Below, in pieces: positions 3,922 through 62,645 of a stretch of DNA of 64,000 nt. Position 1 is the stretch's first letter. Every line of letters begins with the position of its first letter. A program made the position numbers and the translations under genes. This DNA is from an uncultured bacterium (GTDB lineage: Bacteria > Chloroflexota > Anaerolineae > B4-G1). Where the stretch lies: contig CBFDTD010000003.1 of NCBI GenBank assembly GCA_965612745.1, positions 1,816 to 65,815 on the forward strand. Reading direction: 5' to 3'. The notes beneath the pieces are model-generated. The model had not been told where the DNA came from, did not search any database, and saw nothing but the letters and a program-made list of their open reading frames with translations.

Positions 3922-4722
3922 TCAGTAGTGAATATTGACCGGCGTGCCCACCGAGGCCCAATTGTAGAGCCACTGAGCCTCGGATGTGGGCAGGTTGACG
4001 CAGCCGTGGCTCATCGGATGGCCGAAGTTCGAGTGCCAGTAGGTGCCGTGGAGGCTGTAGCCCCGGTAGAAGTACATCGTGTAGGGCACGTCGGGCAGGT
4101 AATAGCCGGGGCCGGACATATCGTCGGAGATGTATTTGACGTAGATGCGGTATTGGCCTGTGGGAGTCGGCGTGCCTGGCAGGCCGGTCGAGACGAGCGT
4201 GCTGCGCACGGGCGTGTTGCCTTCATAGGCGATGAGCCGCTGTGCGCTGAGGTCAACGTCAATCCAGCGACCGCCGGTCGGGGCGGAGGGCGGGGGAGAT
4301 GGAGCGGGACTTGCGCTGCTAGGGATGTGCAGCACCTGCCCGACGCAGATGAACGAGGGGTTGCGGATACCGTTCGCCTGCGCCAGCGCCCACATCGAGA
4401 CGCCGTACCGCAGGGCGATGGACGAGAGTGTGTCGCCGCGCTGCACGGTGTAGGTCTGGCCCGATGAGGCAGGTTGGGCTGACGTCGCAGGCGCGGTCGC
4501 ACGGCCTGGGAGCACCAGCCGCTGCCCGGCGTAGACGCGGCCGGTGTTGACGATGCCGTTGGCGGCTGCCAGTGCCTGGACGGTCGTGCCGTAGCGCAGC
4601 GCGATGCGGAACAGATTCTCCCCCCGCTGCACGACGTGGATGATAGGCCCCTGGGCGAGAACCGGCGCGGCCAACGCCAATGTCAGCGCGAGCATTGTAG
4701 TGAGTAGCAATACTTTGCGCAT
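3922..4722 (-). CDS. LysM-LysM-L,D-transpeptidase (YkuD domain) secreted protein
   Basis: Signal peptide [24 protein letters not shown], two LysM-like repeats ([18 protein letters not shown]...), and C-terminal [20 protein letters not shown] (Ldt His/Cys catalytic motif). Start moved to M17 (RBS GGAGGAG). Confidence 0.8.
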
Positions 4723-17804: not shown

Positions 17805-17903
17805 GGGTGTGGCTAAAATCAGTGGGACGTCCGGCTTCAGCCGGAAAATCCCCGCTGAAGCGGGGCCTCCGGCCTTTTCTCCCCACGAATTTTAGCCAGA
17901 CTC
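17805..17903 (+). mobile_element. MITE-A full copy (99 bp), TIR GGGTGTGGCTAAAAT / ATTTTAGCCAGACTC, flanked by 9-bp TSD GTTTTGCAC
   Basis: Direct repeat GTTTTGCAC at 17796-17804 and 17904-17912. Terminal inverted repeats of about 15-18 bp. Internal hairpins CCGGCTTCAGCCGG and CCCCGCTGAAGCGGGG. Confidence 0.8.
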
Positions 17904-40742: not shown

Positions 40743-41805
40743 GCAGGTCTGCAAACTGTGCGGCGCACGCTCGCACCTCATTGCCGCCCACCTGGGCGTG
40801 TGCCTGGCTTGCATCCGCAGCCGCCCCCAGGAGGCGCTGGAGATCGCCGATGCCGCCCACGCCGCCGCCCGCCGTCTCTTCGGCCTGCCGGAGCGACCGC
40901 CCCGCACCGAGGAGGGCCGCCGCTGCGGACTGTGCGCGCAGGATTGCGTCATCGGCGAGGGGGAGCGCGGCTTCTGTGGCCTGCGCGAGGTGCGCGACGG
41001 CAAACTGCGCCACCTGGCCGGCACCCCCGACCGGGGCCTACTCCACTGGTACCGCGATCCCCTGCCCACCAACTGCGTCGCCGACCCATTCTGTGCCGGG
41101 CACACGCAGCGTGGCAAGCACAACCTGGCCGTCTTCTACGCCGCCTGCACCGTGGACTGCCTCTTCTGCCAGAACTGGCACTTTCGAGAGAGCGACCCGT
41201 TCCACTCCGATAAACTCACCGCCAGCCAGTTGGCCGAGGCCGCCAACCCGCGCACCTATTGCGTCTGCTACTTCGGCGGCGACCCCGCCAGCCAGATGCC
41301 GCACGCGCTGGCCGCCAGCCGCCTCCTGGCCGAACGTGGCATCGTCATCTGCTGGGAGACGAACGGCACTGCTCACCCTCGCCTGATGGACCGTGCCCTT
41401 GATCTCTCTCTTGCCACCGGCGGCTGCGTTAAGTTCGACTTGAAAGCCTTCGACGACAATCTACACCGCGCCCTCACCGGGGCCAGCAATCGCCGGACGC
41501 TTGCGAACTTCGCCCGCGCCGCCGCCCGCTTCGACGAGCGTCCCGAACCGCCCCCCGTCGTCGCCAGCACGCTCCTCGTGCCCGGCTACGTGGACGCCGA
41601 GGAGGTGGGCCGCGTCGCCCGCTTCATCGCCGACCTGGACCCGCGCATCCCCTACGTCCTGCTCGGCTTCGCGCCCCACTTCTTTTTCCCCGACCTGCCG
41701 CGTACCTCCGTGCGCCACGCCGAGGAGGCCGAGGCCGCCGCCCGCGCGGCCGGCCTGACCCGCGTGCGCATCGGCAACCGCCATCTGCTCTCCCGTGACT
41801 ACTGA
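40711..41805 (+). CDS. Radical SAM enzyme of AmmeMemoRadiSam type (PFL-activase-like) with an extra N-terminal Cys-rich extension
   Basis: CGLCAQDCVIGEGERGFCGLREVRDGKL then ACTVDCLFCQNW (CxxxCxxC), and C-terminal PYVLLGFAPHFFFPDLPRTS...VRIGN. The N-terminal 60 aa hold CKLCG...CLAC. The start (overlaps the upstream gene by 32 nt) is uncertain. Confidence 0.6.
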   Translation: MWHLPRTELPEQVCKLCGARSHLIAAHLGVCLACIRSRPQEALEIADAAHAAARRLFGLPERPPRTEEGRRCGLCAQDCVIGEGERGFCGLREVRDGKLRHLAGTPDRGLLHWYRDPLPTNCVADPFCAGHTQRGKHNLAVFYAACTVDCLFCQNWHFRESDPFHSDKLTASQLAEAANPRTYCVCYFGGDPASQMPHALAASRLLAERGIVICWETNGTAHPRLMDRALDLSLATGGCVKFDLKAFDDNLHRALTGASNRRTLANFARAAARFDERPEPPPVVASTLLVPGYVDAEEVGRVARFIADLDPRIPYVLLGFAPHFFFPDLPRTSVRHAEEAEAAARAAGLTRVRIGNRHLLSRDY

Positions 41806-41852
41806 GCCTCTCACTTGACATCTTCGCTCAATCCGCGTACCATTTGTGATAT

Positions 41853-42024
41853 GGGTGTGGCTAAAATCAGTGGGACGTCCGGCTTCAGCCGGAAAATCCC
41901 CGCTGAAGCGGGGCCTCCGGCCTCTTCTCCGGCTTCAGCCGAGCAGGACGTCCGGCTTCAGCCGGAAAATCCCTGCTGAAGCGGGGCCTCCGGCCTTTTC
42001 TCCTCACGAATTTTAGCCAGACTC
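41853..42024 (+). mobile_element. MITE-A copy with internal duplication of the hairpin core (172 bp), TSD TTGTGATAT
   Basis: Direct repeat TTGTGATAT at 41844-41852 and 42025-42033. Two tandem GACGTCCGGCTTCAGCCGGAAAATCC..GCTGAAGCGGGGCCTCCGGCC units. Confidence 0.8.
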
Positions 42025-46510: not shown

Positions 46511-46885
46511 ATGTCCGGCTTCTTCGAACGAGTTTATCAACTGGTGCGGCAGGTGCCGCCTGGCAAGGTTACCTCTTATGGGGCGATCGCCCGTATGCTG
46601 GGCCACCCGCGCGCAGCCCGCACCGTCGGTTGGGCATTGCACAGCCTGCCGGATGGCTCCGACGTCCCGTGGCACCGCGTGATCAACAGCCAGGGCCGCA
46701 TCTCCACCAGTTGCCGGGAGCATAGTGCCGACCTCCAGCGGGCGTTGCTAGAGGCTGAGGGGATCGAGTTCGACGAACATGGGTACGTGGACTGGGAGCG
46801 TTTCGGCTGGGAAGGACTCTCTTGGCTGGAAGTTGAGAAAATCGTCGCTTTCCTTGACACCGATACGAAATGCGGTATAATTTAA
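46511..46885 (+). CDS. Alkyltransferase-like (ATL) protein, MGMT DNA-binding fold lacking the acceptor Cys
   Basis: VPPGKVTSYGAIARMLG...VPWHRVINSQG: PWHRV replaces the PCHRV of Ogt/Ada, the ATL hallmark. ATG at 46511 directly after the hgdA stop. Confidence 0.7.
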   Translation: MSGFFERVYQLVRQVPPGKVTSYGAIARMLGHPRAARTVGWALHSLPDGSDVPWHRVINSQGRISTSCREHSADLQRALLEAEGIEFDEHGYVDWERFGWEGLSWLEVEKIVAFLDTDTKCGII

Positions 46886-47269
46886 ATGCAATGAACGCAT
46901 ACTTGGGTCATCTGAGTAATCATATACAAGGCTCGTTGGTCCTCACCGGTGCCTGTTCCACCTTGGGCGATGCACGGGTGACCGGTAGGTGTATGCCTTG
47001 CCATCTGCCCAGGCGGACGTCGGCAGTGTATCTGCCGAGCGGGACGGTAAACTGGCCCTGCCAGCAGGCCAAGGCGCAGTCGCGTGCGGTGGGTGGGACC
47101 GTCAGGGCCTGCATTGCAGATCGGGCATTCTCAGAATTGACAGCACCTTATCAGCACCATACTGCAAGCGCCGCCGAGTTTGCGGCGGCGGCATGGTCGG
47201 TTTCGGGTTACGAGCCCGAATCCTCTCCAGAGGAGGAGGTGTGCGGGGGTACGTGACTTCCCTGATTGG

Positions 47270-47312
47270 CGAGGAGCGCGGGGTCTTACCCAAGACCTCG
47301 CGCTTTTTTATT
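47270..47312 (+). terminator. Rho-independent terminator (GC stem plus TTTTTTATT)
   Basis: GAGCGCGGGGTCTT-ACCCA-AGACCTCGCGC followed by TTTTTTATT. Lies about 390 nt after the ATL stop. Confidence 0.5.
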
Positions 47313-47343
47313 GCACTCTACCAATCCCCGCACCTTCATCTCG

Positions 47344-47511
47344 TTGCGAGGGTGACTACTCAGCCGCCCCGCCAGATTCGAGATCGGACGCAGATTAACG
47401 CGGACTCTCGCAGATCAAATTCAAACATCAGCGTTTGTCGGCGTTCGTCTGCGTCCCAAAGGATGCGCTTCAATGGCTCATCTGAGGTCGGCTGAGTAGT
47501 CACTTGCGAGG
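47344..47511. mobile_element. 152-bp MITE-like element with perfect 15-bp TIRs (GTGACTACTCAGCCG) and 8-bp TSD TTGCGAGG
   Basis: TIR 47352-47366 and its reverse complement at 47489-47503. Direct repeat TTGCGAGG at 47344-47351 and 47504-47511. Confidence 0.7.
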
Positions 47512-47554
47512 TAGAGTAACGGACATCAGGTGTTGGCTCAGTGATCGTTGCAGG

Positions 47555-47627
47555 GCCCCGGTGGCTCAAATGGTAGAGCAGCCGTCTTGTAAGCGGCAGT
47601 GTGGCGGTTCGAACCCGCCCCGGGGCT
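47555..47627 (+). tRNA. tRNA-Thr (anticodon TGT)
   Basis: Manual cloverleaf: acceptor GCCCCGG/CCGGGGC, D-stem GCTC/GAGC, anticodon stem GCCGT/GCGGC with loop CTTGTAA (U33, anticodon TGT, A37), T-arm GGCGG-TTCGAAC-CCGCC, discriminator T. 73 nt. Confidence 0.8.
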
Positions 47628-47630
47628 TCG

Positions 47631-47701: not shown

Positions 47702-48226
47702 ATGACAGCGGGCGTTTTATTACTCAATGCTACATACGAACCCCTGCGGGTCATCTCGACCCGGCGGGCAGTCAGCCTGCTGATGCGAGGGGTTGCCGAG
47801 GGCGTCGAAGGCGTCGCGGCCCGGCTGCGCACGCCCAGCACGGTTTTCGAGGTGCCCTCCGTGCTACGGCTGCGCTACTACGTCAACGTCCCCCAGCGCG
47901 GGGCTACGTGGAGCCGCCGTGGCGTTTTGGCCCGCGACGACTACACCTGCGTGTACTGCGGCGTCCGTGTCGGGGAGCGGCGCCATGGCCGGATCCTCAC
48001 CCGCGCCGACTTCAGCGTAGATCACCTCATCCCCCGTAGCCGGGGCGGGAGCAGCACCTGGGGCAACACGGCCTGCGCCTGCCGCTGGTGCAACGGGCGC
48101 AAGGGGAACCGCACGCCCCACGAGGCGGGGATGCGTCTCCGGTGGGAGCCCAAGACGCCTCGCGTCAACTACCTGGTCGTCTCTGGGGAGGTGCCGGCTG
48201 AGTGGAAGGTCTACCTGCGGATGTAA
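47702..48226 (+). CDS. HNH endonuclease family protein
   Basis: CVYCG...VDHLIPRSRGG...WGNTACACRWCNGRKG HNH/His-Me finger motif. RBS GGAGGAG then ATG at 47702. The ORF-track start at 47504 would read through the tRNA and is rejected. Confidence 0.75.
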   Translation: MTAGVLLLNATYEPLRVISTRRAVSLLMRGVAEGVEGVAARLRTPSTVFEVPSVLRLRYYVNVPQRGATWSRRGVLARDDYTCVYCGVRVGERRHGRILTRADFSVDHLIPRSRGGSSTWGNTACACRWCNGRKGNRTPHEAGMRLRWEPKTPRVNYLVVSGEVPAEWKVYLRM

Positions 48227-48316
48227 TGAGCCTCCGGTGCGAAACAAGCGGCCCCGCTCGTATGAGCGGGGCTGCCCTCAATTGGCAAGTTTTTTCCCCT
48301 TATGCTAAAATAATGT

Positions 48317-48415
48317 GAGTCTGGCTAAAATTCGTGGGGAGAAAAGGCCGGAGGCCCCGCTTCAGCGGGGATTTTCCGGCTGAAGCCGGACGTCCCACTG
48401 ATTTTAGCCACACCC
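48317..48415 (-). mobile_element. MITE-A full copy (inverted), TSD AAATAATGT / AAATAATAT
   Basis: Flanking 9-bp repeats at 48308-48316 and 48416-48424 (8/9 identical). Confidence 0.75.
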
Positions 48416-59911: not shown

Positions 59912-59933
59912 ATGCCCACCAGATATTGATACG

Positions 59934-60032
59934 AGCCTGGCTAAAATTCGTGGGGAGAAAAGACCGGAGGCCCCGCTTCAGCGGGGATTTTCCGGCTGAA
60001 GCCGGACGTCCCACTGATTTTAGCCACATCCT
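59934..60032 (-). mobile_element. MITE-A full copy (inverted), TSD TATTGATAC
   Basis: Perfect 9-bp direct repeat at 59925-59933 and 60033-60041. Confidence 0.8.
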
Positions 60033-62359: not shown

Positions 62360-62546
62360 TATGTTCCTTGCAAATATCCCACAGCATAGCAGGGTTCACT
62401 GCGGATTCAGAGGCCCTTTCGTAATCCCCTGCCCGGCGATTGAAGTCGCCGGCTACGCGCAGCCAAGTCGGCCTGCGCCGACTTCATAACCGACGCAGGT
62501 CGGTTGCGCAGCACGCGGTTTCAACCACCGTGCCTCCTTTTGATAT

Positions 62547-62645
62547 GAGTCTGGCTAAAATTCGTGGGGAGAAAAGGCCGGAGGCCCCGCTTCAGCGGGG
62601 ATTGTCCGGCCGGAGCCGGACGTCCCACTGATTTTAGCCACACCC
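62547..62645 (-). mobile_element. MITE-A full copy (inverted), TSD TTTTGATAT / TTTTGATGT
   Basis: 9-bp flanking repeats at 62538-62546 and 62646-62654 (8/9). Confidence 0.75.

Follow-up and report, generated by a model that had tools for sequence, protein, structure and literature searches.

Classical bacterial MITEs such as Correia, Chunjie, QMITE and MITEAba12 are small elements with terminal inverted repeats (TIRs), flanking direct repeats and a stable stem-loop, and their mostly intergenic copies are dispersed, fall into size and sequence subfamilies and include truncated and nested forms (PMC10969869). Among insertion sequences, the closest described relative of the element reported here is ISDge4 of Deinococcus geothermalis, a member of the ISBst12 group of the IS66 family with a single transposase gene of ~449 aa, the ends GTGACTACTCAGCA and GTAACTGCTCAGCA and an 8-bp direct repeat, whose transposition was observed (PMC12898284); its length is 1469 bp (size and repeat length also in PMC8369957). 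Transposition in the ISBst12 group was reported as first observed in 2026 (PMC12898284). In the literature that we searched, no MITE is described for the ISBst12 group, nor for Anaerolineae or other Chloroflexota.

Here we describe a 152-bp element from the window, by which we mean the whole 64-kb stretch of DNA analysed, belonging to an uncultured Chloroflexota bacterium of hydrothermal sediment (contigs outside the window are cited by L numbers). The element is real, can now be classified and is of an ordinary kind. It resembles the classical MITEs in its small size, TIRs, flanking direct repeats and stable stem-loop, as well as in its dispersed, mostly intergenic copies, its subfamilies and its truncated and nested copies; unlike them, it belongs to a family that is G+C-rich rather than AT-rich, and the classical families have other parent IS families and other duplication lengths (PMC10969869). 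Our understanding of transposition is unchanged by the finding. What it gives is a MITE family, concrete and open to checking, for the ISBst12 group of IS66 in Anaerolineae-type Chloroflexota, together with a simple annotation signature for metagenome-assembled genomes (MAGs), in which the 14-nt end motif GTrACnryTCAGC is combined with an 8-bp duplication. Such elements interrupt metagenome assemblies and give rise to spurious calls of small ORFs.

The window reads TTGCGAGG at 47344-47351, then GTGACTACTCAGCCG ... CGGCTGAGTAGTCAC at 47352-47503 (152 bp), then TTGCGAGG again at 47504-47511. The 15-nt GTGACTACTCAGCCG (47352-47366) finds its exact reverse complement at 47489-47503, and the inverted repeat reaches 18 nt with one mismatch. 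Thus, the left TIR, GTGACTACTCAGCCGCCC on the plus strand (47352-47369), pairs perfectly with the right end over its first 15 nt and at 17/18 positions overall, and the right TIR (47486-47503), located by the repeat finder, reads GTGACTACTCAGCCGACC on the minus strand. An internal imperfect palindrome, with 30-nt arms that are 77% complementary (47386-47456), makes up the inner part of a long hairpin. A sequence-only reading had placed the TIRs, the 8-bp target-site duplication and the 152-bp element at these positions, and direct reading together with a repeat finder bore out each coordinate; its distance of 44 bp to tRNA-Thr is right within counting convention (42 nt from the right duplication, 50 nt from the repeat end). 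The 8-mer TTGCGAGG occurs twice in the 64 kb, both times flanking the element, which is itself single-copy within the window. At 152 bp and non-coding, it lies well under the 500 bp of a MITE and has no room for a transposase gene. Its G+C content is 55% against a window mean of 61%, and its target sites are not AT-rich; the AT-richness that is typical of MITEs, without strictly defining them, is therefore absent from an element only slightly lower in G+C than its surroundings. An 84-aa ORF (47240-47494) is called automatically across the element in most contigs of the locus (L001-L009) and is almost certainly spurious.

To look for further copies we searched for GTGACTACTCAGCCGMCC in a collection with one genome per species and in the JGI metagenome contigs. 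Besides the window, this family comprises four loci with the same interior (L032, L025/L041, L030:5318-5469 and L040) and four with the same ends and unrelated interiors of 122-161 bp, counts that are lower bounds and biased to well-preserved ends because the collection scans required an exact 18-mer. Among the same-interior copies, L032:1604-1756 is 97% identical to the window element at a different locus (flanks TCACCTAA / TCACCTAG), and L030:5318-5469 represents a subfamily B, also 152 bp, ~78% identical and flanked on both sides by AAATCCTG. In L025:1332-1543 and L041:5112-5323, one rearranged site seen in two samples, the first 59 nt of subfamily A run directly into a full subfamily B copy and neither part is flanked by a duplication; one copy may have inserted into another, with a deletion afterwards. 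A 5'-truncated same-interior copy lies at L040:~4560-4683. The same-end elements are L030:3330-3480 (151 bp, TCCGCAGG on both sides), L030:4778-4938 (161 bp, CAGGTGTC on both sides), L017:6014-6135 (the same as L042) in an Anaerolineaceae MAG (between copies of CCCACCGA) and L038:1586-1715 (between copies of CCGGATAC). Perfect 8-bp duplications of unrelated sequence flank the element at six independent sites, the window and five others, and a seventh site matches at 7/8. The terminal motif is conserved in every member of the family. The complete copies whose context we examined (the window, L030 three times, L032) are either intergenic or placed right at a stop codon. L030:3330-5469 holds three different same-end MITEs in successive intergenic gaps within 2.2 kb, a local insertion cluster.

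The sequence-only reading had called for a genome-wide search with the TIR, and the public collections do hold more copies, which lie at loci unrelated to this one and are flanked in each case by their own 8-bp direct repeat: the terminal repeat is not confined to this locus, and the other copies are indeed bounded by 8-bp duplications. The number of copies is small, and among the copy-bearing contigs from other loci only L040 can be tied to the genome of the window, since it also carries MITE-A (described below) at 95-99% identity and therefore comes from this organism or a very close one. The 97% identity of two copies suggests that the activity of the family is not ancient. In the genome-per-species scan, GTGACTACTCAGCCGMCC gave 14 matches, one of them a true 122-bp member (L017) and one a possible decayed member (L013). 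The remaining matches of that scan were rejected, being inside coding sequence or without a partner end. Likewise, no full-length element stands beside the 18-mer matches in L022, L034, L014, L019 and L020, where the ORFs encode ordinary proteins (e.g. release factor, transketolase-like) and not transposases. The window locus was not itself among the matches of the genome-per-species scan, so its genome is absent from that collection or is not there in its present form.

The window holds another repeat, 'MITE-A', of ~97 bp with the ends GGGTGTGGCTAAAAT / GAGTCTGGCTAAAAT and 9-bp duplications. Its six window copies are at 17805-17903, 41849-41930, 41946-42024, 48315-48399, 59933-60031 and 62543-62645, two of them in tandem, and a further copy lies at L040:12102-12200; the duplications GTTTTGCAC and GTATCAATA are perfect and two others match at 8/9. 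Like MITE-A, the 152-bp element is short, TIR-bounded, intergenic, flanked by target duplications and part of the same genome. Unlike MITE-A, it is present once in the window rather than six times, its duplications measure 8 bp rather than 9 bp and its ends are unrelated to GGGTGTGGCTAAAAT. The two elements have no sequence similarity, so the view that they are unrelated stands, and the differences in ends and duplication length agree with the proposal that they depend on different transposase families. The window also contains GTGACTACTGAGCC at 41795-41808, a 13/14 match to the MITE end. It overlaps the stop codon with which a coding sequence closes, and the tandem MITE-A copies follow ~40 bp downstream of it. 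We found no second end to pair with GTGACTACTGAGCC, which may be a solo end or may match by coincidence, the probability of the latter being roughly 2% by our estimate.

The sequence-only reading had proposed looking for an insertion sequence with the same ends, and ISBst12-group elements of the IS66 family have matching ends. We read five full-length members, whose transposases carry PF03050 DDE_Tnp_IS66: all five end in GTrACnryTCAGC, and three are flanked by perfect 8-bp duplications. The element of Geobacillus kaustophilus pHTA426 (L064:14107-15741, 1635 bp) has the ends GTAACTATTCAGCC / GTATCTATTCAGCC between two copies of GACGAGTT. Two elements were reached by tblastn of the Geobacillus transposase against plasmids: one on the Ca. 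Chlorohelix allophototropha plasmid NZ_CP128402.1, a Chloroflexota replicon (L065:548-2051, 1504 bp, ends GTAACAATTCAGCC / GTAACAGTTCAGAC, flanks AATTATTT twice), the other in D. wulumuqiensis (L066:523-1976, 1454 bp, GTAACTGCTCAGCA at both ends, flanks TAAAAATC twice). A profile search with three transposases, which returned proteins carrying PF03050, led to elements in the Anaerolineales MAG GCA_052387475.1 (L068:533-2060, 1528 bp, GTGACTGCTCAGCC at both ends, no clean duplication) and in the Chloroflexi MAG GCA_020199795.1 (L069:89-1659, 1571 bp, ends GTGACTGCTCAGCCGC / GTGACTACTCAGCT, the contig ending 1 nt past the element). The consensus GTrACnryTCAGC derives from these five elements and one published case.

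Against the ten IS ends read here, the MITE end scores 9/14 to 13/14, and 15/16 for the left end of L069; the closest IS ends are thus still one base off in 14-16. The best matches come from the two Chloroflexota MAG elements, at 15/16 for the left end of L069 and 13/14 for its other end and for both ends of L068. ISDge4 is comparably close: its GTGACTACTCAGCA is 13/14 to the window MITE end GTGACTACTCAGCC, its GTAACTGCTCAGCA is 13/14 to the right end of subfamily B, GTAACTGCTCAGCC, and both elements have an 8-bp repeat. Unlike ISDge4, with its 1469 bp and its own ~449-aa DDE transposase, the window element is 152 bp, non-coding and from another phylum, and only the ends are common to the two. 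The elements in L069, L068 and L065 are nearer in origin, sharing phylum and terminal motif (and, for L065, a demonstrated 8-bp duplication), whereas they measure 1.5-1.6 kb, carry a PF03050 gene each, have interiors unrelated to that of the MITE and come from outside the host population of the window. The 152-bp element thus has two traits of the ISBst12 group, the characteristic terminal sequence (GTAA.../GTrACnryTCAGC) and the 8-bp target duplication, the latter shared by the MITE copies, L064, L065, L066 and ISDge4. It has no coding capacity for a PF03050 transposase, which makes it a non-autonomous derivative or dependant and not an IS66-family insertion sequence. In fact, its similarity to full-length elements is confined to the 14-16 terminal bases, with unrelated interiors, and sharing the ends alone makes it a type II MITE in the terms of a review (PMC10969869).

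To explain these results we propose, with a probability of roughly 0.85, that the element is a type II MITE that has kept only TIRs of ~14-18 nt and is recognised through them by a DDE transposase of the ISBst12 group. A full-length, single-ORF ISBst12-group element of ~1.45-1.65 kb elsewhere in the cell would act as donor, supplying the transposase in trans. The transposase would bind both GTGACTACTCAGCC ends and link them to a target whose two strands are cut 8 bp apart, and repair of the staggered cut would then leave the 8-bp duplication. Trans-mobilisation itself, the presence of the donor element and the identity of the transposase in this organism are what we infer from the shared ends and duplications. 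By tblastn, no ISBst12-type transposase appeared in the 64-kb window or the host-population contigs searched; a repeat scan of the window found no IS-sized inverted repeats with related ends; and no autonomous copy with matching ends turned up in the window or in those contigs, the matches being in elements of other organisms, including other Chloroflexota MAGs. The best name for the element is an ISBst12-group-dependent MITE.

A site before insertion was found through homologues of the HNH endonuclease encoded just downstream of the element (47702-48226). In L058 (JGI 3300002465) the HNH protein is 91% identical and the DNA ~85% identical to the window locus, and L058:1633-1720 carries the flanks of the window with a single TTGCGGGG and no element. 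The site reads ...CCCTGCACCTCCACCTCG TTGCGGGG TAGAGTAACGGTCGC... or, in a shorter reading of the junction, ...CACCTCCACCTCG TTGCGGGG TAGAGTAACGG..., and the window without the element and one duplicate reads CCCCGCACCTTCATCTCG TTGCGAGG TAGAGTAACGGAC, with 34/39 bases identical to L058 by our count. As aligned, L058 shows the orthologous site as one would expect it before insertion, empty and with one target copy. Both duplicates in the window share a G-to-A difference from L058, and this change therefore predates the insertion. The dispersed copies with 8-bp duplications and the empty site in L058 uphold the original reading of the 152-bp element as a MITE; in fact, the element is a MITE, an identity supported by the other copies, the empty site, the intergenic position and the hairpin structure. 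Several other contigs were set aside as empty-site references: L053/L054 (HNH 93%), L060 and L062 have rearranged surroundings, and L059 has different filler at the site.

The comparison with L058 also shows what the element landed in. An intact tRNA-Met(CAT), beginning TGCGGGGTAGAGTAACGGTC, occupies L058:1674-1746, and the target in L058 is the base before this gene plus its first seven bases, that is, the 5' acceptor stem. In the window, two short plus-strand relics flank the insertion. On the left, CCCCGCACCTTCATCTCG (47326-47343), the 3' end of a tRNA-like gene plus spacer, aligns to ...CCCTGCACCTCCACCTCG just upstream of the L058 tRNA-Met; on the right, TGCGAGGTAGAGTAACGGAC (47505-47524), which overlaps the right duplication, corresponds to the first ~20 nt of the tRNA-Met(CAT) gene when set against the intact one in L058. 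An intact tRNA-Thr(TGT) follows on the plus strand at 47554-47629, 42 nt downstream of the right duplication (ARAGORN; Rfam 47555-47627, 65.4 bits). In L058, nine tRNA genes separate the conserved upstream terminator from the tRNA-Thr/HNH pair, and L059 has a similar array of six; these arrays (L058:1181-2463 and L059:704-1870) are orthologous to window 47310-47629. The lineage of the window has thus lost the array except for tRNA-Thr and the two relics. L059:1086-1211, which scores 62.7 bits on the Rfam tmRNA model, corresponds to the left relic. Each of the arrays in L058 and L059 also includes ~420 nt of conserved non-tRNA sequence, closed by a tRNA-like T-arm and acceptor. The anticodon of tRNA-Thr is TGT in the window vs CGT in L058:2388-2463 and L059:1795-1870, the gene being otherwise conserved.

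The description of the element as next to a tRNA gene is therefore right as far as it goes, with tRNA-Thr adjoining, and can be refined: as read from the alignment, the element sits in the relic 5' end of tRNA-Met within a collapsed tRNA array, not merely beside a tRNA gene. The insertion site thus also records the decay of a tRNA array, and this context is the most unusual aspect of the element.

How widely the insertion is held can be judged from the contigs that share the locus. A protein identical to the HNH endonuclease is encoded on at least 20 contigs, ten of them analysed here, from hydrothermal-vent and sediment metagenomes and from the NCBI MAG GCA_029933215.1; the source labels of this protein are 'Chloroflexi/Chloroflexota bacterium', and that of a 93% relative is 'Anaerolineae bacterium'. 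All 16 contigs of the window locus (L001-L010, L033, L043, L049, L055-L057), from different samples and 99.4-100% identical, carry the element with the same duplication, so the insertion is fixed in the sampled population. Closer relatives with an empty site were not found among these 16 contigs, which are at least 99.4% identical and all carry the element. The insertion probably postdates the split from the lineage of L058 and predates the diversification of the ~99.5%-identical population.

Other explanations bear on which enzyme moved the element and on whether one moved it at all. A duplication of 8 bp is not unique to IS66, and a different 8-bp-duplicating family (e.g. IS256, ISL3, IS1595 or IS6) could have mobilised the MITE, the likeness to ISBst12 ends being coincidental; the host contigs also yielded no partner transposase. 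Such a coincidence appears very improbable, given that GTrACnryTCAGC terminates each of the five ISBst12-group elements, which were retrieved independently, and that the agreement with the Chloroflexota MAG ends (13/14 to 15/16 at the exact terminal position) and with ISDge4 (13/14) is far beyond chance. It is scarcely credible that the sequence is instead a REP/BIME-like or IS200/IS605-type palindrome, a recombination scar or a chance palindrome, even though it is strongly palindromic and lies in a region with clear deletions. Elements moved by Y1/HUH enzymes, which act at specific tetra- or pentanucleotides, make no target duplications, whereas perfect 8-bp duplications of varied sequence abut the conserved ends at six independent sites and L058 has an empty site with a single target copy; duplications and empty site effectively refute a palindrome of this kind. 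By our own estimate, moreover, a perfect 15-nt inverted repeat within 200 bp combined with a perfect 8-nt direct repeat is expected by chance ~2e-7 times per 64 kb.

The element could also have been mobile once and have since been domesticated by its host, the hairpin between the terminator and tRNA-Thr now serving as an insulator, processing site, promoter donor or small RNA. We regard this as quite improbable. The element folds into a long and very stable hairpin as DNA or RNA and on either strand (z-scores -6.0 to -8.0), and the fold is kept between subfamilies A and B, with 95.5% of pair cells paired and five pairs changed on both sides; this covariation comes from only two effective lineages and is thus weak evidence of selection, and stable long hairpins are in any case generic to MITEs (PMC10969869). 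The copy is fixed and 99.4-100% conserved in 16/16 population contigs, but the flanking region is just as conserved (99.4-100%), so the conservation of the element says nothing specific to it. A sigma-70 consensus scan detected no promoter-like site over 47310-47554: tRNA-Thr has no consensus promoter between itself and the element, which speaks for domestication, and there is none inside the element either, which speaks against it. No Rfam 15 family matches over the element at the gathering threshold; the n-myc IRES match at E<=1 (47192-47382, 14.9 bits vs a gathering threshold of 40) touches the element only with its tail, is not credible and is taken as chance. A bolder possibility, which we hold to be unlikely, is that the insertion was not neutral. 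The MITE would have inactivated the tRNA-Met(CAT) of an array that in relatives also includes a tmRNA-like gene, and would have triggered the collapse of the array or gone along with it, the hairpin being kept since then because it separates or drives the expression of tRNA-Thr. If true, this would document how a MITE reshaped a tRNA operon in an uncultured lineage of Chloroflexota.

Upstream of the element, which is positioned between the terminator at 47271-47309 and tRNA-Thr, lies a further transcription unit of ~420 nt. It is bracketed by a 12/12 sigma-70 promoter (TTGACA-16-TATAAT, 46854-46881) and by that terminator, a plus-strand hairpin followed by a U-run (-26.7 kcal/mol, z-score -5.7) that is conserved in L058, L059 and L060. 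A 128-aa ORF is called in the unit (46854-47309), which is 74-78% conserved in L058 and L059, yet its differences vs L058 fall evenly over the codon positions (40/34/35), so it is probably not protein-coding. The unit, which matches no Rfam family, may represent an unclassified RNA ahead of the tRNA array. ARAGORN calls a 101-nt 'tRNA-Arg(ACG)' inside it (47172-47272), probably a false positive, as Rfam gives no tRNA support. In L059, the position of the L058 tRNA-Met (L059:~1215-1300) is occupied by a palindromic filler rich in GACTA/TAGTC, with GTGACTAC-like words, and a second inserted hairpin lies further upstream; such intergenic stretches turn over quickly.
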